Below are positions 2,448 through 63,566 of a stretch of DNA of 64,000 nt, in pieces. The first letter of the stretch is position 1. Each line of letters starts with the position of its first letter. Position numbers and translations under genes: made by a program. The notes beneath the pieces were generated by a model that had not been told where the DNA came from, ran no database searches, and saw only the letters and a list, made by a program, of their open reading frames with translations. This DNA comes from Enterobacteria phage RB18, in the sequence record NC_054906.1. One strand, written 5' to 3'.

Positions 2448-4267
2448 TACTGGCTCATCCATTCTTTACGAAGGTCAGCATTATCTCCCATGAGCATTTC
2501 AAAAAGCTCTTTCCAGTTCTCAGGAAGTTTAACAACATCATATACTGGGTTTTGAATCATCTCACGATATTCAGATTTTTCCAAAGAGCCAAGTCCCTTA
2601 ATATAACGGATGCTATGTTTAGGTAGAGCATCTTTGGCACTCTCATATTCAGCGACTGTATAAAACCATTCTTGTTTTTTACCGACCTGAGCGATGATTA
2701 CAGGAGTTTTGACAAAGCGAATTCGTCCTTGCTCAAACAATTCTGGCCAATTACTAAAAAATCCGAGCAGAGAAGGATAAATGCTTCCTAGACCATCATG
2801 GTCAGCATCAGTCATAATAGCAATATTATGATAATTCAAGTTTTCAGCTTTTTCACCAAGAACTAATCCAGTGATTGCGCAAATATCAAATAGTTCTTTA
2901 TTTTTAAGCATATCAGCATATGACATACCCCAACTGTTGAGAACTTTACCACGCAATGGATAACCACCATGAAGTTCTTTATCACGAACATCAATAAGAT
3001 ATCCGATAGCAGAATCACCCTCAGTCAAGAAAAGAGTAGTATCAGCATCTTTACCGCAAAGATTCGCTTTGATATGTTTATGAACCTTAGCTTTAGAAGC
3101 CTTTTTAGCTGCTTTAGTTTCTGCTGCTTTTTCTGCCGCCAATTTACGAGCCAAAGCAGCTTCAATAATCGGCATTAGAATTGCTTCATTATTTAGAATA
3201 GCACGTGAAATCTTTTTAGCATCAAGTTGAATATGACTACGGATTTCACCAAATGGAGAAGTCAAACGCTCTTTAGTTTGAGAATCAAATCGCATGTTTT
3301 TCATATCACGAACAAACATAACGATAGTCAAACATTCTTTGACACGCGCTTTGGTTACATCAATTTTGAACTTACGTTTGATTTGTGGAATAAGGTCTTC
3401 ACAAATATCATCCATAACACAGTCAATGTGATGGCCACCATTCTTAGTATGAATGTTATTGACGTATGTTAATTGACGAAAACCATCTGGTGAACGACCA
3501 ACCGCAATAGAACAATTTTCTTGTTCTTGAACGATAGCATGTTCATCATACTGTCGTGCGTATTTCTTAAAATTACCCTGAACCTTTTTACCATTAAAGG
3601 TAAATTGAATATCAGGATAAACAACAGCAAGTGTCTGGAGACGATCCAGTGTAATGTCAAGATAAACTTGGGACAGCTCATTAGTTTCAAATGACATAAA
3701 ATCAGGAATGAAAGTAACACGAGTTCCTTTCCATTTTCCAGGAATATCTTCCCATGATTTATTTTCCATGCCATTTGAGCAACGAACTACAATATTATTT
3801 TGACCATCGCCAGTTTCACCGACAAACATCACAGAAAAAATGTTTGTCAAACTAGAACCAACACCGTTCATACCGCCAGTGACGCGTTCTTTATCATCAC
3901 CGAAGTTACCACCTGCTTTTGGAATAGTCCATGCGGCAACAGGACCAGGAATTTCTTCACCGGTAGGTGTTTTAACCATCGCTTGTGGAATACCGCGACC
4001 GTTATCTTCAACTGTTACTTGATTGTTTTTAATAGTAACATTAATTTTATTTGCGAATTTAAACTTAGTACGAATACCTTCATCTACTGAGTTATCGATA
4101 ATTTCATCAATAAGCTTAACAAGACCAGGTACATACTGAACACTTTCCCATTTACCAAACAGAAAGCGCTCATGCATTTCATTAGCAGAAGAGCCAATAT
4201 ACATGCCGCTACGCTTTTTGATATGTTCAATATCGCTCAGAATTTTAATTTCATTCTTAATCATCAC
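2447..4267 (-). CDS. 39: DNA topoisomerase II large subunit, unsplit T2-type gp39 (GHKL ATPase + TOPRIM)
   Basis: 606-aa ORF; no separate gene 60 between rIIA.1 and 39; conserved position. Confidence 0.9.
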   Translation of the reverse strand: MMIKNEIKILSDIEHIKKRSGMYIGSSANEMHERFLFGKWESVQYVPGLVKLIDEIIDNSVDEGIRTKFKFANKINVTIKNNQVTVEDNGRGIPQAMVKTPTGEEIPGPVAAWTIPKAGGNFGDDKERVTGGMNGVGSSLTNIFSVMFVGETGDGQNNIVVRCSNGMENKSWEDIPGKWKGTRVTFIPDFMSFETNELSQVYLDITLDRLQTLAVVYPDIQFTFNGKKVQGNFKKYARQYDEHAIVQEQENCSIAVGRSPDGFRQLTYVNNIHTKNGGHHIDCVMDDICEDLIPQIKRKFKIDVTKARVKECLTIVMFVRDMKNMRFDSQTKERLTSPFGEIRSHIQLDAKKISRAILNNEAILMPIIEAALARKLAAEKAAETKAAKKASKAKVHKHIKANLCGKDADTTLFLTEGDSAIGYLIDVRDKELHGGYPLRGKVLNSWGMSYADMLKNKELFDICAITGLVLGEKAENLNYHNIAIMTDADHDGLGSIYPSLLGFFSNWPELFEQGRIRFVKTPVIIAQVGKKQEWFYTVAEYESAKDALPKHSIRYIKGLGSLEKSEYREMIQNPVYDVVKLPENWKELFEMLMGDNADLRKEWMSQ

Positions 4268-6665: not shown

Positions 6666-6709
6666 AATTATCTCTCACTTGTTAAAAAGATTTTATACTC
6701 CGCAGGACC

Positions 6710-6739
6710 ATTATACTCTGGTCCCAAGAGTTTGTAAAC
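6710..6739 (-). promoter_or_regulatory. early promoter (GTTTAC-18-TATAAT)
   Basis: consensus elements on minus strand upstream of motB; the -10 lies inside an inverted repeat ggacca...tggtcc. Confidence 0.5.
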
Positions 6740-7239
6740 TAGCTTACACGAACATTAATCACTGCGCTGCGAGGAACTACGGAGTACTCTCCAGCATGAA
6801 CTACATTAAGAAGTTCAACGCCATCTTCAATCCACTGGTCAGTTACCCAACCGCCAATCGGATTCGCGAATGGACGACGAATATAAACTGCCTTACACAA
6901 CAAATCAGTCGGGTCTTCAATTTTTTCAACTGGTGTTACATACATAGAAACTAAATCCATATCAATATGGGATTTTTCTTGTTCTTCTTTTTCAATTTCT
7001 GTCAATAAATTGAAATCTTCTTCATAGATGATGAATGATGATACCCTTCCATAATAGTTTCTAATTTCCATGTACACTGTACCAATGAGAATTCCGCTAT
7101 TAACACTAATAACAGTAAAAGGATATCCGCCAGTTGTACCAAGAAGTTCCCAAAACTTGCTATCAGTCGTATTCGACATTGTCTGGAAATCAATTTCAGA
7201 TGGTTTTTTCATTTGATACGTAGTATTAATTTTAATCAT
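6739..7239 (-). CDS. MotB paralog
   Basis: 166 aa; C-terminal VTDQWIEDGVELLNVV..YSVVP aligns with MotB ITDQWVEDGVKLYNTV..YKVIP. Confidence 0.55.
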   Translation of the reverse strand: MIKINTTYQMKKPSEIDFQTMSNTTDSKFWELLGTTGGYPFTVISVNSGILIGTVYMEIRNYYGRVSSFIIYEEDFNLLTEIEKEEQEKSHIDMDLVSMYVTPVEKIEDPTDLLCKAVYIRRPFANPIGGWVTDQWIEDGVELLNVVHAGEYSVVPRSAVINVRVS

Positions 7240-19655: not shown

Positions 19656-21082
19656 TAAAATTTTAATTCATTTGCCAAAGCATCTAACTGAGCTCGAGTG
19701 GATTCATTTCTTTGATAGCGATTCTGCTCAGCTTGTATCTGTTGTGAACCTGCTACCTCACTCACTTCAGTTGGAGTAGAATCTTGTTCAATTTCTACCC
19801 ATTTCTGATTTCCTTTTTGAACACCCATCAAAAACTTATTCCATTTGTTCTTATCGCCATATCGTGATTTGATTTGCTTAATGAGTTGTTGTTCAGCAGC
19901 TGCTAGCTCCTCGGTTTCAATGACCGCAAGCATAAAATCGGCTGTTGCTGGAAGACCGGCAGATTCTGCAATATCGCTCATGTTAACATCAGAAGAATCC
20001 CAAGCTTGTTTACCAACCTGTGCTGCAGTCCAAAGAACAGTTTCGGTTTCAACAGCAAGAGCACGCAATTCCTCTGCAATAGCTTTAACAGTTGTGTAAC
20101 TATTTTCTGAATAAACTCTGATGCGACAAGATTTACAAATACCCAGATAGTCGACAATAATGATTGTTGGAACAAAATTCTTCTTGAGCTTCAATTCGTT
20201 TAAAAGTGATCGAAATGTATTAGCATCTGCTCCACCAGTAGGATACTGTTTAACGATTAAACGACCGAGAGTAGATTTCTCACGCCATTTTTCCATTTTT
20301 CCTTTATACTCAGCGTAAGAAATATGCCCATCATCAATGTCATCAAGAGAAACATCAAGCATATTAGCATCAATACGTTTAGCACAGACTTCTTCTGCCA
20401 TTTCCATGGAAATGTAAAGAACATTATGTCCGAGCTGTAAATAATCTGCTGCCAATGAACACAGACCTAATGACTTACCAACGTTAACGCCAGCCATTAA
20501 AACGTTCAGCGTTCCAGTTTCAGCTCCGCCTTTCGTAATTTTGTTTAGAATTCTGAGTTTAAATGGAACCTTACGAGCTTTATTCATATAAGATAGCCAA
20601 CGTGCTTCATAGTCATCCATCCAATCATGACCAACGTAACTATCAAATGAAATTGATAATGCTTGGCGCATGATGTCAGGAATAGCACCAACATCCGGCA
20701 TTTTCTTATTTCGTTTTTCCGGAGGAAGCTCAGCATTAGTTTGAATTTCAATTATTTTAGACGTAGCATTAAACATCGCCCTTTGCTGAACATATTTTTC
20801 TGTTTCTTTTACTAACCAGCTGTGGTCTTCCGGAGAATCGGCTAGTTTTGAAATAAGTGTTTTTACACCAGAATATTCTGTTTCAGTAAATGAACTATTT
20901 TCTAATGCAACATTTAACGCATTGATAGATGGAACGCTATGATACTCATTAACATGGGATTTAATTAATTTGAATGTATTTTTAGCTGGACCACTTTCAA
21001 AATATTCTGAATCCATATATGGCCAAACTTTTGAAAAATAAGCTTGATCAAATATGAGATGAGAAAGAATAATTTCTACCAC
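19655..21082 (-). CDS. 41: replicative DNA helicase gp41 (DnaB-like)
   Basis: 475 aa as in T4; RecA-fold ATPase; position. Confidence 0.9.
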   Translation of the reverse strand: MVEIILSHLIFDQAYFSKVWPYMDSEYFESGPAKNTFKLIKSHVNEYHSVPSINALNVALENSSFTETEYSGVKTLISKLADSPEDHSWLVKETEKYVQQRAMFNATSKIIEIQTNAELPPEKRNKKMPDVGAIPDIMRQALSISFDSYVGHDWMDDYEARWLSYMNKARKVPFKLRILNKITKGGAETGTLNVLMAGVNVGKSLGLCSLAADYLQLGHNVLYISMEMAEEVCAKRIDANMLDVSLDDIDDGHISYAEYKGKMEKWREKSTLGRLIVKQYPTGGADANTFRSLLNELKLKKNFVPTIIIVDYLGICKSCRIRVYSENSYTTVKAIAEELRALAVETETVLWTAAQVGKQAWDSSDVNMSDIAESAGLPATADFMLAVIETEELAAAEQQLIKQIKSRYGDKNKWNKFLMGVQKGNQKWVEIEQDSTPTEVSEVAGSQQIQAEQNRYQRNESTRAQLDALANELKF

Positions 21083-40376: not shown

Positions 40377-40847
40377 TTAATCATGTTTCCACACCCCATC
40401 GGTATTTGACCAAAGCCGCTGATTATCTGATCCTCGCCACAGCTTTTTAGTCGGAAGATTTTTCTCATACTTCCCATCAATAATAACATCAACATATTTA
40501 AGCATTTCTAGTTGTTTAATATCTTCAAACTTATATCCTGTCCACAACCAAATGCTTTTATTGGGATAAAGATTTTTTACTGTTTGAACAATGCAATGAA
40601 TAACATCTCGGTTATCAGGATAAAGAGGGTCTCCTCCAGTTATAGTCAATCCTTCTATATAATCATTATTCAAACATTCAATTAATTGTTCTAGTGTTTC
40701 ACCAGTGAATGGAATACCATTTCTAGCATTCCATGTTGATTTATTATAACACCCTTCGCATTTATGCAAACAACCTGTAACGAAAAGAACGACCCTGCAA
40801 CCAGGGCCATTAACAAAATCGCAAGGATAAAATCTATCATAATTCAT
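40377..40847 (-). CDS. nrdG: anaerobic ribonucleotide reductase activase NrdG (radical SAM)
   Basis: 156 aa as in T4; Cys cluster CLHKCEGC. Confidence 0.85.
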   Translation of the reverse strand: MNYDRFYPCDFVNGPGCRVVLFVTGCLHKCEGCYNKSTWNARNGIPFTGETLEQLIECLNNDYIEGLTITGGDPLYPDNRDVIHCIVQTVKNLYPNKSIWLWTGYKFEDIKQLEMLKYVDVIIDGKYEKNLPTKKLWRGSDNQRLWSNTDGVWKHD

Positions 40848-42661
40848 TGGTGCTTAACCCTATGCATGATTTCTTTATTTTTACCGAGATTAAATCCGCG
40901 TTCGTTAGGATTTCCCAAATAACCACATGTTCTTCTTATTGTGTTCATCTTTTTAGGATCAGTTTCTCCACAAATAGAACAAACAAATCCGTTTTCAGTA
41001 GGAGTCATTTCATGGGTACTTCCACACGTAAAACATTTATCTACTGGCATATTAACACCAAAATAATCTAAATGTTGTGCAGCATAATCCCATACGGCCT
41101 CAAGGCCTTTCAAGTTATTTTTCATATCAGGAAGTTCAACATAAGAAATGTGACCACCTGTCGCAATGAAATGATATGGCGCTTCACGAGAAATCTTTTC
41201 AAACGGAGTAATATTTTCTTCTACTGAAACATGGAAACTGTTAGTGTACCAACCTTTATCGGTAACATCTTTTACGCTTCCATATTTTTCTGTATCGAGT
41301 TTACAGAAGCGATAACAAAGGTTTTCAGCAGGAGTCGAATATAAACTAAAAGCAAATCCAGTTCTTTCAGTCCACTGTTTAAGATGAGCATTCATTTTAG
41401 TTAAAATTTCTCGTCCAATATCACGACCGACAAGAATATTCAATTCGTGAATACCAATGTATCCTAAAGACACTGAACTTCTACCGTTTTTAAATAACTC
41501 AATTATGTCGTCATCAGGTTTAAGACGAACCCCGAATGCACCTTCTTGGTAAAGAATAGGAGCAACAGTAGCTTTAACTCCTTTTAAGGAACTAATTCTA
41601 CACATCAAAGCTTCAAAACATAAATCCATTCGTTCATTAAATAGCTCAACAAATTTCTGTTCATTGAATTGTGTTCCAATATAAGAATCTAACGCGATGC
41701 GAGGAAGATTCAGTGTTACAACACCAAGATTATTACGTCCATCAAGAATTTCATTACCAGTCGAATCTTTCCATACGCTCAAGAAACTACGGCAACCCAT
41801 TGGAGAAACAGGAACAGATGAACCAGTGATAGCTTTATTGTTCTTAGCTGAAATAATATCAGGATACATCCTTTTGCTTGCGCACTCTAGAGCAAGTTGC
41901 TTAATGTCGTAATTCGGATCGTCTTTATAAAGATTAACGCCTTCTTCAACGAACATAACAAGCTTAGGGAAAATAGGAGTTATTCCATCACGACCGAGAC
42001 CTTTAATACGATTTTTCAGAATTGCTTTCTGAATCATTCGTTCAGTCCAGTCAGTTCCCGTACCAAATGTAATTGTTACAAAAGGTGTTTGCCCGTTTGA
42101 ACTAAAGAGAGTATTTACTTCATATTCATAAGCTTGGAATGCATCGTATACGTCTTTTTCTGTTTTAGATTGAGCATAATTCAACGCATCAGCGATTTGC
42201 CATTTTTCTGCATCCTCAATATGTTTTGCATAGGTGCGTTTAACATAAGGAGAAAGTACTTTATCTACATTAGCAAAAGTCGTTCCGCCGTATTGATGGG
42301 AAGCAACCTGTGCAGTAATTTGTGCCATAATTGCAGTAGCAACACCGATTGATTTAGGAGTTTCAATCTGTGCATTACCAAGCTTAAATCCATTCTCAAG
42401 CATTCCTTTTAAATCTACTAAACAACAATTAGTAAATGGAAGAGCAGGGGAATAATCAATATCGTGGAAATGGATAATTCCGCTTTCATGCGCTTTCATA
42501 ATAAAAGACGGGACCATATTTTTGGCAATGTGTTTAGACACAATACCAGCCATAAGGTCCCGTTGAGTTGGAAAAACACGAGAATCTTTATTAGCATTCT
42601 CGTTTAAAAGGTCTTTATTAGTTTTATGAATCAATCCTTCAATTTCTTTTTCAATTGTCAT
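40844..42661 (-). CDS. nrdD: anaerobic ribonucleoside-triphosphate reductase NrdD (glycyl radical enzyme)
   Basis: uninterrupted 605-aa ORF with C-terminal Zn ribbon CFTCGSTHEM...CSICGE. Confidence 0.9.
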   Translation of the reverse strand: MTIEKEIEGLIHKTNKDLLNENANKDSRVFPTQRDLMAGIVSKHIAKNMVPSFIMKAHESGIIHFHDIDYSPALPFTNCCLVDLKGMLENGFKLGNAQIETPKSIGVATAIMAQITAQVASHQYGGTTFANVDKVLSPYVKRTYAKHIEDAEKWQIADALNYAQSKTEKDVYDAFQAYEYEVNTLFSSNGQTPFVTITFGTGTDWTERMIQKAILKNRIKGLGRDGITPIFPKLVMFVEEGVNLYKDDPNYDIKQLALECASKRMYPDIISAKNNKAITGSSVPVSPMGCRSFLSVWKDSTGNEILDGRNNLGVVTLNLPRIALDSYIGTQFNEQKFVELFNERMDLCFEALMCRISSLKGVKATVAPILYQEGAFGVRLKPDDDIIELFKNGRSSVSLGYIGIHELNILVGRDIGREILTKMNAHLKQWTERTGFAFSLYSTPAENLCYRFCKLDTEKYGSVKDVTDKGWYTNSFHVSVEENITPFEKISREAPYHFIATGGHISYVELPDMKNNLKGLEAVWDYAAQHLDYFGVNMPVDKCFTCGSTHEMTPTENGFVCSICGETDPKKMNTIRRTCGYLGNPNERGFNLGKNKEIMHRVKHQ

Positions 42662-43699: not shown

Positions 43700-43729
43700 A
43701 TTATATACTGTTTCTTCATCAGTGTAAAC
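43700..43729 (-). promoter_or_regulatory. early promoter (GTTTAC-18-TATAAT)
   Basis: minus-strand consensus upstream of pin. Confidence 0.5.
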
Positions 43730-43782
43730 CGGTTCTTCCGGCTCTGGCTCTACAGTTTCCCATCTAGCCGCCCACCAAGGTT

Positions 43783-44103
43783 TTATAGCGTAATCCATTC
43801 TCTTACTGTCTGAGTTACTACACGTTCTCGAAGCTCAACCAGTTCAACGGTAGGAACTGCATAATACCAGTCAGAATGGTAAGAACCTGAGCGAGATTCA
43901 TTTACAGCCACATGTACATTATGTTTTGGACTAAAATAAACACACTGACGATATTGGCATTTACCATCTTGCACCCAGTCTTCTATTTCGATAGGTTTAA
44001 GATAGTCGGAAAAATCGAAATCATAGTTTTCCGAAAATGCATCATGGTCTTCAATGATTTCGCTCAGAACTGCATCAACATCTAATTTATTTTCAATAGT
44101 CAT
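43783..44103 (-). CDS. hypothetical acidic protein
   Basis: 106-aa ORF. Confidence 0.5.
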   Translation of the reverse strand: MTIENKLDVDAVLSEIIEDHDAFSENYDFDFSDYLKPIEIEDWVQDGKCQYRQCVYFSPKHNVHVAVNESRSGSYHSDWYYAVPTVELVELRERVVTQTVREWITL

Positions 44104-59361: not shown

Positions 59362-59823
59362 TCATTGAGTTTTAATTACTGCTTTAGAAGCCTTTCCTGG
59401 TAAACGACGACTGTTGATAATTGCCATCCTACATTGAAGTGACGGGTTTTTGAACTTCTCATTAGGTTTACAAACCGTAAATCCAAGCCAAAGATTTCCA
59501 TCTGTAATTTCCAAACGCCCAGGACGATATTCAACCCCATCAATAAAATCCTCGTCAATGTCAGGACGCGGAGGCATACTCAGGAATTCATTAACTTCTA
59601 AAACATGGTCTTTTATTTTATGGAATAATTCAAAAACGTATGTCTCATCAATCTCCCGTTGAATTGCGCGATCAAGAAGATGCTGAGAATATTTTAGATG
59701 AAACGATGAGACTCCTGCTGCTTTTGATGCCTCACGAATCTCATTGTTAATTTGACGAAACTCCGACTCAAAGTGACGACGAAGCTTATTTCGACGGATA
59801 AAAACTTCTGTATTGATAGTCAT
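59362..59823 (-). CDS. regB: RegB site-specific endoribonuclease
   Basis: 153 aa as in T4; position. Confidence 0.8.
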   Translation of the reverse strand: MTINTEVFIRRNKLRRHFESEFRQINNEIREASKAAGVSSFHLKYSQHLLDRAIQREIDETYVFELFHKIKDHVLEVNEFLSMPPRPDIDEDFIDGVEYRPGRLEITDGNLWLGFTVCKPNEKFKNPSLQCRMAIINSRRLPGKASKAVIKTQ

Positions 59824-59850
59824 GTTATTCTCCTCTTAACTGATAGAAAA

Positions 59851-59880
59851 ATTATACCACAGTCAAGAGGAAAAGTAAAC
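59851..59880 (-). promoter_or_regulatory. early promoter (GTTTAC-18-TATAAT)
   Basis: minus-strand consensus about 28 nt upstream of the regB ATG. Confidence 0.55.
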
Positions 59881-59882
59881 AA

Positions 59883-60203
59883 TTATTCTTTAAATCTGAT
59901 TAATTTATTCATAGACTTTGAAACTTCTGCACGAACCTCATGTAAGTTTTTAAGCTGTTCAAGACGCTGTTCATAGTAAGCAATTTCATCTTCTTCGAGA
60001 CAGTCCTGTGAATCTTCTTTAAGATAACGTGCATAGTCCTGGAAAGCTTTACGGACTACTTCCTGGAAGTCATCAAGACTTTGAATTTTCTTAGGAGCGG
60101 CAGATACACGACGAGGGGCAGTATAATACTCATAACCAAACCCTGCACTTAATTGAGCCATTAGTATTTTTCCTCTGGTTGGAACACAGCACGGCAAGCC
60201 CAC
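59883..60203 (-). CDS. hypothetical protein
   Basis: 106-aa ORF. Confidence 0.45.
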
Positions 60204-60463
60204 ATACTTGCTTCTTTGAGTTTCGTTTTAGCAATAGTTAACTGATCGAGGCTTTCGGCGTAATTCTTCGCGAGTTCATCATCTTCACAGCTATCAAATG
60301 CTTCCCAAAATTCATCGTATAAAGCATCAAAGATAAGTCCTAAACGAACTTCAGCGTCTTTGATAGCATTCACTTTACCGATTTTCTCTTCAGTATGCGG
60401 CTTATAACCTTTAATGTCTTCAATCATATTTGACTTCCTCACCAGTACATAAATCATATTCAA
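60161..60463 (-). CDS. hypothetical acidic protein
   Basis: 100-aa ORF. Confidence 0.45.
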
Positions 60464-60641
60464 CTAAACGAATAGGTTCATGAATGCCATATCCCTGAAC
60501 AGAAATTTCTGTCGTAGGATAAATTCCATCAATATCACCCATATTCCACGCTTCGTTAAATTGCTGTTCGCCTGAATTACTAAACCACTCGGCGAAAGCA
60601 TTTAGCACATCTTTAGAACCTTCAATAATTATCTTTGCCAT
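60420..60641 (-). CDS. hypothetical small protein
   Basis: 73-aa ORF. Confidence 0.45.
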   Translation of the reverse strand: MAKIIIEGSKDVLNAFAEWFSNSGEQQFNEAWNMGDIDGIYPTTEISVQGYGIHEPIRLVEYDLCTGEEVKYD

Positions 60642-61003
60642 TATAAGCTCTCAGTAAAGGTACGAGCAATAACGTCGCGCTGCTGTTCCGGAGTCAGAGA
60701 GTTAAAGCGAACTGCATAACCGGATACACGGATGGTCAGCTGTGGATATTTTTCCGGATGCTTAACTGCATCTTCCAGAGTTTCACGACGCAGAACGTTA
60801 ACGTTCAGGTGTTGACCACCTTCAATTTTAACTGTAGGCTGTGGCTCAATTTCAATTTCACGAGCATGCAAACCGTAGAAAATTTCTGGGTCTACAAAAG
60901 AGTCCTCTTTAAAGGTTTTAGAGACAATAATTCGTGCTTGAATACCATCTTCAAAATAAATAGTACCTTTATGTGTGCCTTCAAGAATTTGATATGCTTT
61001 CAT
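60641..61003 (-). CDS. grcA: autonomous glycyl radical cofactor (GrcA/YfiD-like)
   Basis: 120 aa; C-terminal [60 protein letters not shown] carries the glycyl radical motif RVSGYAV; 3' half is GC-rich. Confidence 0.7.
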
Positions 61004-61010
61004 ATAAACC

Positions 61011-61391
61011 TCAATTAGAAAATAAATTTATCCAAGATTGTTCTTTAATTAAAAATGGCTCAGAATCATATGCCATTAAACTCTGTGTGATTAGTCCTTT
61101 AAAAGGTCCATCAATAAATTCCATGGTAAAATATGGAATTTTATTCATTAACTGTGCGTTAGGAGCAGTGCACAAAACTCTGCATCCTTTGAATACGCCT
61201 TTTTGTAATTTGTATTGCTTGGGATAAAATTCGCTTAAAATGTTGTTATTTGCCAAAATTTCAAAATGATTCACCAATTTATTTTTAATAGTTTTTGGCG
61301 AAAAATAAAGATATTCGAAAAGCTGTGTGTCTGTCATCATTGCATTCCGATTACGAAAAACTGTGGACGAGTAATACCACCAATACAACAT
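61011..61391 (-). CDS. hypothetical protein
   Basis: 126-aa ORF. Confidence 0.45.
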
Positions 61392-61876
61392 TTACTATTA
61401 CAGCAGTAGTGTACAGTCTCAATATGGACACTATAAATCTTATCCATATCAGGAGATTTGACAGGCTCATCAATTATATACAAAATTCGCGAAAGCGATA
61501 AACCTCTGAACTTGCTTCCTTTATTACCAATAAAACTGCGCACAGAATCAGTAAATAAACGAAAACGTATATCATCATTAGAATAACGCGAAAATTCCTT
61601 TTTAATGTTATTTGCAGAAATTTTAGCGTAAGCTGAAGTATTAGAAAGAACGATAACTGTTCCGCCATCATACAACCAATTAGCAGCAAAGTTAGTCACA
61701 GCAATTGATTTACCGGATTGACGTCCACCATCTAGTCGAAGTGTGCAATACTGTTTAAGTAATTCTTCAAATGGCGGGATATATTCGTTTTTACAAATTT
61801 CTTCTACTCTAGCATCAGAATGGTGTGTAAAAGCATTCATCAGGGATAGATAAGGACCAGTTAAAAATGTTCTCAT
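61337..61876 (-). CDS. P-loop NTPase of unknown function
   Basis: 179 aa from the internal ATG; Walker A GGRQSGKS, Walker B-like ILYIIDEP. Confidence 0.5.
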   Translation of the reverse strand: MRTFLTGPYLSLMNAFTHHSDARVEEICKNEYIPPFEELLKQYCTLRLDGGRQSGKSIAVTNFAANWLYDGGTVIVLSNTSAYAKISANNIKKEFSRYSNDDIRFRLFTDSVRSFIGNKGSKFRGLSLSRILYIIDEPVKSPDMDKIYSVHIETVHYCCNSKCCIGGITRPQFFVIGMQ

Positions 61877-62029
61877 TTTATTCTCTCTAGGTTTGGGCCA
61901 TTCCGTGGCGCATGAATTGTCCATTTCTGTATTTACCCATTACCGCACTTGGGCTCGACCTTATTACAGGTTGGCGGGAATCCCTCACAGAATCATGAGG
62001 TCCAGGTTGTTCCCATATTTCTTATTTGC

Positions 62030-62503
62030 TTATTTGAACGATTTAACGTACTGAATAGAACCTTTACTATTCACAAAGGCAATTTTACCATTTTTGTTAT
62101 ACATGGTAGCAGTACGTTGATAGCCATAAGTTTGTTTACCAGATTGATAACCAACTAATGCAAAATTATCTTCACCCATTTTATTCTGTTTAGCGCGAAT
62201 ACGTTCATGACCATGTGCCATAAGAACCTTAGCATCACCTGTTGCAATGGATCGACGAGTTTTTTCATCTTCAACTGTATTAACAAAGTCGTCAAATGAA
62301 TCAAATTTAGCATGAGATTTATTATACAGTTTTCCATCTACTGCATAATTATATCCCTGTACATCCATCTCAACTTCTGTACCATCATCCAGTACAGCAG
62401 TGATTTTCTGTCCTTTTTTAAATTTCAAAAGATCAGTAAAAGATTCAGCAATAATTTGAGAATTAATAGCTGCTTCAGTAATAAATTCTTGATATGTTTT
62501 CAT
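62030..62503 (-). CDS. internal (capsid-packaged) protein with CTS N-terminus
   Basis: 157 aa beginning MKTYQEFITEA, the T4 capsid targeting sequence; located upstream of e like ipIII. Confidence 0.6.
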   Translation of the reverse strand: MKTYQEFITEAAINSQIIAESFTDLLKFKKGQKITAVLDDGTEVEMDVQGYNYAVDGKLYNKSHAKFDSFDDFVNTVEDEKTRRSIATGDAKVLMAHGHERIRAKQNKMGEDNFALVGYQSGKQTYGYQRTATMYNKNGKIAFVNSKGSIQYVKSFK

Positions 62504-62563
62504 GTGTATCCTTTAAATGTAAATATTTTAATTAATAATTTATCTCTTCAAGTAACTGTGAAT

Positions 62564-62593
62564 ATACTATCACAATTCTAGGAAAAAGTAAAC
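62564..62593 (-). promoter_or_regulatory. early promoter (GTTTAC-18-TAGTAT)
   Basis: minus-strand consensus upstream of the internal protein gene. Confidence 0.45.
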
Positions 62594-62597
62594 AACT

Positions 62598-63566
<969 letters not shown>

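Follow-up and report, generated by a model that had tools for sequence, protein, structure and literature searches.

A segment identical to host grcA in the vs.6 gene of bacteriophage RB18: probable recurrent gene conversion from the enterobacterial chromosome

The vs.6 locus and its product

Nucleotide comparison assigned the window (the whole 64-kb stretch of phage RB18 DNA analysed in this study) to a Tequatrovirus (T4-like) genome. Escherichia phage Shinka is 98.6% identical over window positions 60000–62000, and many T-even phages reach 97–98%. The T-even relatives annotate the ORF at 60641–61003 as vs.6 or as autonomous glycyl radical cofactor, and the order of genes in this region of T4 is denV, vs.8, vs.7, vs.6, vs.5, vs.4, vs.3, regB. 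On the basis of the annotation, we take the T4 protein Y06I to be the product of vs.6. The locus contains the following features:

60641–61003, minus strand: vs.6 (Y06I) coding sequence, 120 aa, encoding a stand-alone glycyl-radical protein, a homolog of GrcA/YfiD
60710–60730, minus strand: glycyl radical motif RVSGYAV, residues 92–98, in which Gly95 corresponds to Gly102 of GrcA and Gly734 of PflB (alignment to 6OWR and PflB 697–759)
61009–61012, minus strand: putative Shine-Dalgarno-like element GAGG, recognised from the sequence alone, 5 nt upstream of the vs.6 ATG and overlapping the vs.7 stop codon
60420–60641, minus strand: vs.5 ORF, whose start codon overlaps the vs.6 stop codon (TAATG)

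A scan of positions 59800–62700 for promoters and terminators was uninformative, with 13 promoter-like sites versus 10.8 expected from shuffled sequences, and 3 terminator-like sites versus 1.5.

The Vs.6 protein of RB18 is identical to that of T4. The Pfam domain Gly_radical covers residues 61–101 (66.8 bits; cut-off 22.2). Among solved structures, the top match is E. coli GrcA (PDB 6OWR; phmmer, E=8.6e-42, residues 22–120 of Vs.6 against 28–127 of GrcA), followed by PflB, in which residues 697–759 align with residues 58–120 of Vs.6 end to end over the domain (E=5e-26). The original prediction had placed a GrcA-like gene at 60641–61003 and had described its C-terminal 60 residues as matching those of GrcA. 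The ORF proved exact and the homology was confirmed: residues 61–120 of Vs.6 are identical to residues 68–127 of E. coli GrcA at 60/60 positions, including RVSGYAV with Gly95.

Vs.6 thus resembles E. coli GrcA in being a small stand-alone protein with the same PflB-type domain and an identical C-terminal part, but it is 7 residues shorter and its N-terminal 60 aa are only ~33% identical. It is because of this N-terminal divergence that the score of Vs.6 for the NCBIfam GrcA equivalog TIGR04365 (153.3 bits) falls below the 170-bit cut-off; despite this sub-threshold score, RefSeq names the phage orthologs GrcA. The genomic settings of the two genes are also different, since vs.6 is encoded in an AT-rich early-gene cluster of a lytic phage, whereas E. 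coli grcA is located between ung and eamB. The Gly_radical match of vs.6, as well as its conservation in all of the T4-like genomes examined there, has been reported previously (Nolan et al. 2006; PMC1524935).

The host-identical patch and its junctions

At the nucleotide level, vs.6 is divided as follows:

60826–61003, minus strand: 5′ phage-type part, gene nt 1–178, residues 1–60; AT-rich, with a diverged GrcA N-terminal region
60651–60825, minus strand: host-derived patch (putative conversion tract), gene nt 179–353, residues 61–117; encodes the whole glycyl-radical domain
60641–60650, minus strand: phage-specific 3′ tail, composed of the third base of a GAG codon, the last two sense codons and the stop codon; three synonymous differences from grcA

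The patch is identical to grcA of E. coli strains 2EC1 and LR-45 at 175/175 positions, and to the common E. coli grcA allele at 173/175. In BLASTN searches, gene nt 179–363 matched grcA in every one of 5,426 complete E. coli genomes (97.3–98.4% identity); the 5′ half of vs.6 had no match in any of these genomes. A two-breakpoint likelihood scan of the codon alignment delimited the segment nt 179–353, with an identity of 1.00 inside versus 0.47 outside; codons identical to those of grcA numbered 57/57 inside the segment and 7/20 outside it. The GC content is 0.47 for the 3′ 185 nt and 0.48 for the 175-nt patch, compared with 0.343 for the whole window and 0.47 for the donor, E. coli grcA. No part of the window is richer in GC than the patch (z=3.45), whose value is reached by 0.03% of all 175-nt windows. 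Moreover, of the 64 kb, the patch alone gave megablast matches to any of the 5,426 E. coli genomes, and a megablast search of the whole window against E. coli for further host-identical DNA found none.

The host-like 3′ half of vs.6 is real, a result that is confirmed and statistically overwhelming. The original prediction, which regarded this half as host DNA at the nucleotide level, was therefore upheld by the BLASTN comparison and by the perfect match to the best allele. GC is not uniform along the gene, but steps from 0.34 to 0.48; the elevation that had been predicted is present, although the figure then given (about 50%) was slightly high. Other local GC peaks (0.47–0.48) were observed in the window at 19891–20065, 6698–6872, 43719–43893 and 3827–4001. 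None of them has a megablast match to any E. coli genome, so they do not represent further host patches of this type.

The 5′ 178 nt have a GC content of 0.34, practically that of the window, and their identity to grcA is 33–41% without gaps, or ~47% in the codon alignment. This half had correctly been described as phage-like, but the accompanying idea, that a host fragment was fused to an N-terminal domain of phage origin, had to be abandoned. In a pairwise comparison, residues 22–60 of Vs.6 align with residues 28–67 of GrcA (33% identity over 40 aa, E=2e-5), and the phmmer alignment to 6OWR runs on through the N-terminal region from residue 22. Since the N-terminus is itself homologous to GrcA, vs.6 is a full-length, old grcA homolog whose 3′ part has been overwritten, and not a fusion.

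The 5′ boundary of the patch lies between codons 60 and 61, at EGGQH. It is here that alignment between the phage and host genes becomes possible and that the Pfam domain starts. The position of the boundary agrees within 2 nt between phages of E. coli and phages of Klebsiella. The 3′ boundary is located 7–19 nt before the stop codon across phages, and beyond it homology is absent. The tail of RB18 reads GAG AGC TTA TAA, versus GAA AGC CTG TAA in E. coli grcA, while T4 has GAA AGT TTG and Mosigvirus GAG AGT CTA. T4 and RB18 share the same protein and the same locus, but the RB18 gene differs from that of T4 at two synonymous sites within the patch and in the 3′ tail. Among phages, the last 10 nt of vs.6 are far more variable than the adjoining patch, with at least five synonymous versions (L083, L084, L174, L180–L185). 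This variability may reflect differing ends of the conversion tracts or the tuning of vs.5 translation.

Distribution and host tracking of the patch

Genes similar to grcA were found in Tequatrovirus, Mosigvirus, Jiaodavirus, Karamvirus, Slopekvirus, Krischvirus, T5-like and jumbo phages. Among the phage groups compared, the near-identical patch of E. coli type is confined to Tequatrovirus and Mosigvirus. Some 640 records of these two genera match the patch at at least 95%, and 292 match the common E. coli allele at at least 99%; the patch of T4 is 100% identical to this allele. The host fragment had originally been thought to be recently acquired, but a recent acquisition private to this phage is not compatible with the presence of the mosaic in T4 and in these ~640 records, nor with a pattern that suggests repeated conversions.

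The T5 gene T5.056, vs.6 of Krischvirus and Karamvirus, and the genes of Slopekvirus and Asteriusvirus resemble RB18 vs.6 in their architecture and in the conservation of the glycyl-radical domain. In the homologs of T5-like phages, Krischvirus, Karamvirus, Slopekvirus and jumbo phages, however, the 3′ part is 67–83% identical to any of ~80 sampled enterobacterial grcA genes, and there is little or no GC step. The longest exact runs shared with host genes by the Karamvirus, Slopekvirus, T5 and Krischvirus copies are only 11–20 nt. The identity of the RB18 patch to host grcA is thus considerably higher than that of other phage homologs, in agreement with the predicted host origin. Judging from these comparisons, the copies of T5, Krischvirus, Karamvirus, Slopekvirus and Asteriusvirus look unconverted or long ameliorated.

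Several individual records deserve mention. EC.W14-2 (116 kb, 100% patch match) was considered as a T5-like phage with a separate conversion, but this was rejected, as the record is a Tequatrovirus. The 19-kb IMG/VR contig UViG_2706794630_000006 (L122) carries a grcA gene with a GC of 0.46 and 0.47 in its two halves, the junction RVEGGQ and 91% identity to Yersinia grcA; it is probably host or prophage-flank sequence and not a phage copy. A full-length grcA is also present in "plasmid unnamed4" of Klebsiella sp. WOUb02 (L025, 275 kb), a record that is perhaps a chromid or else a wrongly labelled piece of chromosome.

Phages of Klebsiella (Jiaodavirus) served as an independent replicate. For this comparison, Klebsiella grcA DNA was obtained by a protein search followed by contig look-up (protein P0003 corresponds to the NCBI entry "GrcA [Klebsiella variicola]"). 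In Jiaodavirus, GC rises at the junction from 0.35–0.36 to 0.53–0.55. The patch of phage K5 (nt 181–344) differs from Klebsiella allele L178 at 4/164 positions (97.6% identity) and from E. coli at 17/164 (89.8%), and is followed by a phage-specific tail of 19 nt. Phages KP179 and K5 differ from each other at 3/178 positions in the 5′ part and at 0/19 in the tail, versus 12/164 (7.3%) in the patch. In turn, Klebsiella allele L177 is the nearest to contigs L119 and L171 (5 mismatches), which share the L177-specific states at nt 204, 225, 246 and 288. This sequence pattern would be hard to explain otherwise than by several conversions that occurred independently at the same junction and drew on different donor alleles. 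In L119 (IMG/VR UViG_2974754850, a 167-kb Jiaodavirus-like contig), vs.6 is apparently frameshifted (an ORF of 80 aa; the match spans 359 instead of 360 nt), which reflects either a pseudogene or a sequencing error.

The patch therefore tracks the host, in that the phages of E. coli and of Klebsiella each carry the version of their own host. This tracking is not tight, since Tequatroviruses isolated on Yersinia (phiD1, fPS-2, PYps55T and others) carry the E. coli-type and not the Yersinia-type patch. Two explanations offer themselves: conversion lags behind host switching, or these phages normally grow on E. coli.

Divergence within the E. coli phages was analysed using 16 sampled vs.6 copies of Tequatrovirus and Mosigvirus. 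Between the two genera, the 5′ part diverges by 10.9% and the patch by 3.1% (22% versus 9% at third positions), whereas the differences within genera are 4.6 for the 5′ part and 4.2 for the patch. The near equality of the latter values indicates that the patch is under no special synonymous constraint. In the absence of such constraint, its lower divergence between genera means that the patch coalesces after the genus split, and it would thus have been either converted independently in Tequatrovirus and Mosigvirus or reset after they separated. T4, EC.W14-2, the IMG/VR contig IMG96 and the Mosigvirus-type phage phiE142 show 0/175 differences from the common E. coli allele. Their relatives carry up to 9 changes in the patch, all of them synonymous, and the protein domain is invariant in the 16 copies. 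These observations are suggestive rather than conclusive of more than one conversion among the E. coli phages alone. The post-transfer changes in the 16 copies showed no clear GC-to-AT amelioration bias (12 versus 10); they therefore provide no amelioration clock with which the transfer could be dated.

Compared with the common E. coli allele, the RB18 patch carries the substitutions 261 G>A and 336 C>T, which are exactly the two differences of 2EC1 (NZ_CP047571) and LR-45 (NZ_AP027532). This two-site allele was detected in only these 2 of the 5,426 E. coli genomes, among which single-site intermediates are absent. In the phages, 336 C>T is present in five copies (RB18 and four others), and 261 G>A is private to RB18. 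Phage slur04 has the one-step intermediate allele, which is thus present in phages and absent from E. coli. We considered the match to 2EC1 and LR-45 as proof of a separate conversion, but rejected it, because the allele can arise stepwise within phages. Stepwise mutation in phages is the simplest explanation of the RB18 allele, and with it a coincidental match to the two strains may be no less probable than a separate conversion or a back-transfer.

Origin, function and precedents

Our preferred interpretation, which we consider probable, is that vs.6 is an old phage homolog of grcA that has been subject to recurrent host-to-phage gene conversion and whose protein rescues host PflB. From the patterns described above we infer the recombination mechanism, its recurrence and its selective benefit as follows. 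The 5′ 178 nt would have drifted to phage composition, and the 175-nt glycyl-radical part would have been replaced by host chromosomal grcA through recombination between phage and host DNA during infection. The replacement tract would extend from codon 61 (EGGQH, the start of alignability) to the end of homology, 7–10 nt short of the stop codon. As the 5′ junction is almost without flanking homology, at least the founding event cannot have been an ordinary double crossover between homologous sequences. An infrequent first event that made use of short homology may have created a perfect homology of 175 nt; this would make later conversions much easier, so that the patch would be periodically reset to the allele of the current host. 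Such a course of events would also explain why resets seem to have been repeated in some lineages and to be missing from others. That the glycyl-radical half of vs.6 is still engaged in a continuing gene-conversion exchange with the chromosome of the current enterobacterial host is a further proposal, which we regard as quite possible but put forward only tentatively. In addition, phage-to-phage spread of one converted patch could lie behind part of the pattern seen in the E. coli phages.

Several other histories of the patch have to be weighed against recurrent conversion. A single acquisition in a common ancestor, followed by strong purifying selection that included synonymous sites, would fit the invariance of the domain and the exclusively synonymous changes in the 16 copies, as well as the coincidence of the 5′ boundary in E. 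coli and Klebsiella phages. However, the synonymous sites are evidently not frozen, as the patch varies within genera almost as much as the 5′ part, and an almost unchanged domain is encoded in Karamvirus, Slopekvirus, T5 and Krischvirus by DNA that diverges from the hosts by 17–33%. Moreover, a single event does not account for patches that match the respective hosts of the E. coli and Klebsiella phages, for Jiaodaviruses that match different Klebsiella alleles, or for the pair KP179 and K5, near-identical outside the patch and divergent within it. We therefore judge this history to be quite improbable. One conversion per host genus followed by phage-to-phage spread, with the host serving as donor only once or twice, appears unlikely. 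In its favour, recombination among T-even phages is free, Tequatrovirus and Mosigvirus have hosts in common, and the slur04 intermediate occurs in phages and not in E. coli. Against it, the host allele is found unaltered in four phages belonging to two genera, in spite of the drift that the patch shows elsewhere, and the allele-specific states of the Jiaodavirus patches are those of different Klebsiella lineages.

The abrupt change in composition is all that would be explained by an assembly or contamination chimera of host reads. Hundreds of independently sequenced phages, several T4 records among them, have this in-frame mosaic, complete with a 3′ tail specific to the phage; the mosaic is therefore not private to RB18, and an artefact can be given practically no credence. 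Transfer in the opposite direction, in which E. coli grcA would have taken its 3′ half from a phage, is extremely unlikely. Its one attraction is the occurrence of the RB18 two-site allele in two rare E. coli strains in the absence of single-site intermediates, but 2EC1 is divergent across the whole locus (41 SNPs per 1,385 nt). The GC content of E. coli grcA is uniform (0.47), and in a small sample its identity to the Citrobacter, Klebsiella and Salmonella genes is 0.92, 0.87 and 0.83 for the patch and 0.88, 0.86 and 0.85 for the 5′ part. This parallel divergence of the halves across Enterobacteriaceae, together with the uniform composition, indicates that E. coli grcA has been vertically inherited as a unit. 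Furthermore, the phage patches nest inside the diversity of E. coli grcA, and the 5′ sequence of the phage gene is absent from all 5,426 E. coli genomes. These sequence relationships clearly point to transfer from host to phage; a rare phage-to-host back-transfer of the two SNPs is, at most, possible.

As regards function, a passage of PMC8683613 citing Wagner et al. (2001; BBRC 285:456) states that PFL activase introduces the glycyl radical into both E. coli YfiD and T4 Y06I, and that the complex of either protein with O2-cleaved PFL restores activity. That PflA activates T4 Y06I and that this protein rescues O2-cleaved PflB has thus already been reported, and since Vs.6 of RB18 is identical to the T4 protein, the same function is to be expected of it. 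Synthesised early in infection, Vs.6 would receive the radical on Gly95 from host PflA and would plug into O2-cleaved host PflB, restoring its activity and keeping up the fermentative supply of acetyl-CoA, formate and ATP while host protein synthesis is off. Because host protein synthesis stops after infection, an early copy supplied by the phage would keep PFL fermentation going under the fluctuating O2 of the gut.

The original prediction had named phage NrdD next to host PflB as an enzyme that could be repaired in this way. The PflB part agrees with the T4 biochemistry as relayed in the passage cited above, whereas the NrdD part does not stand. The window encodes such an enzyme:

40844–42661, minus strand: nrdD (anaerobic ribonucleotide reductase), 605 aa, Pfam NRDD 572 bits, motif RRTCGYLG

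That Vs.6 is a spare part for this protein instead of host PflB might be supposed because NrdD is likewise a glycyl radical enzyme, because a role in nucleotide metabolism was suggested by Nolan et al. (2006; PMC1524935), and because the homolog of jumbo phage A4 lies between nrdD and an nrdG-like gene. Nevertheless, the similarity between Vs.6 and the NrdD of the window is not significant (E=2.7), and the motifs are different (RVSGYAV versus RRTCGYLG). The Vs.6 domain, by contrast, is of GrcA/PflB type, identical to that of GrcA and alignable end to end with PflB 697–759, and the published biochemistry uses PFL. A role in NrdD repair is thus very unlikely. Within nrdD (40844–42661), megablast against the E. 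coli genomes detected no E. coli-like nucleotide patch. The grcA-like gene of Escherichia phage A4 (L092; Asteriusvirus, 355 kb; ON286972, 108509–109685) is placed between nrdD and a gene annotated as "anaerobic NTP reductase". This neighbourhood suggests a module of anaerobic metabolism, although the domain is of PFL type.

T4 is the textbook example of a lytic phage, and it destroys the DNA of its host. Nonetheless, 175 nt of its genome are, base for base, E. coli chromosome, and at the identical junction phages of Klebsiella have the Klebsiella version. We regard this as a clean case, in cultured phage–host pairs, of what is probably repeated host-to-phage conversion of an auxiliary metabolic gene. 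It suggests either that the glycyl-radical domain must match host PflA and PflB, or that homology alone makes resetting frequent. If the exchange is indeed continuing, a strictly lytic phage that degrades host DNA would be keeping one segment of its genome synchronised to the host allele. The patch would then be a natural record of the recent host species (E. coli- or Klebsiella-type, and even of the allele), and vs.6 would offer a tractable system for measuring natural rates of host-to-phage homologous recombination. The patch is also a possible marker of the host of origin for T-even phages.

Full-text searches, which did not extend to the T4 genome review or to Wagner (2001), returned no description of a nucleotide mosaic between vs.6 and grcA or of host tracking. 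The gene and its biochemistry are known, and it is the conversion pattern that appears to be undescribed in the searchable literature. To our knowledge, host-to-phage conversion of auxiliary metabolic genes has so far been argued mainly for the photosystem genes of cyanophages. Intragenic recombination between host and phage in cyanophage psbA and psbD was reportedly described by Zeidner in 2005. Such recombination in psbA and psbD, accompanied by patchy G+C content, was documented by Sullivan et al. (2006; PMC1484495). Like vs.6, psbA and psbD are auxiliary metabolic genes of T4-like phages in which segments have been exchanged with the host copy. In vs.6, however, identity to the host reaches 100% over the segment, whose sharp breakpoints coincide with a domain boundary. 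Unlike in the cyanophages, the hosts of the phages carrying vs.6 are enterobacteria, the direction is clearly from host to phage, and one and the same junction has apparently been reused with the alleles of different hosts.
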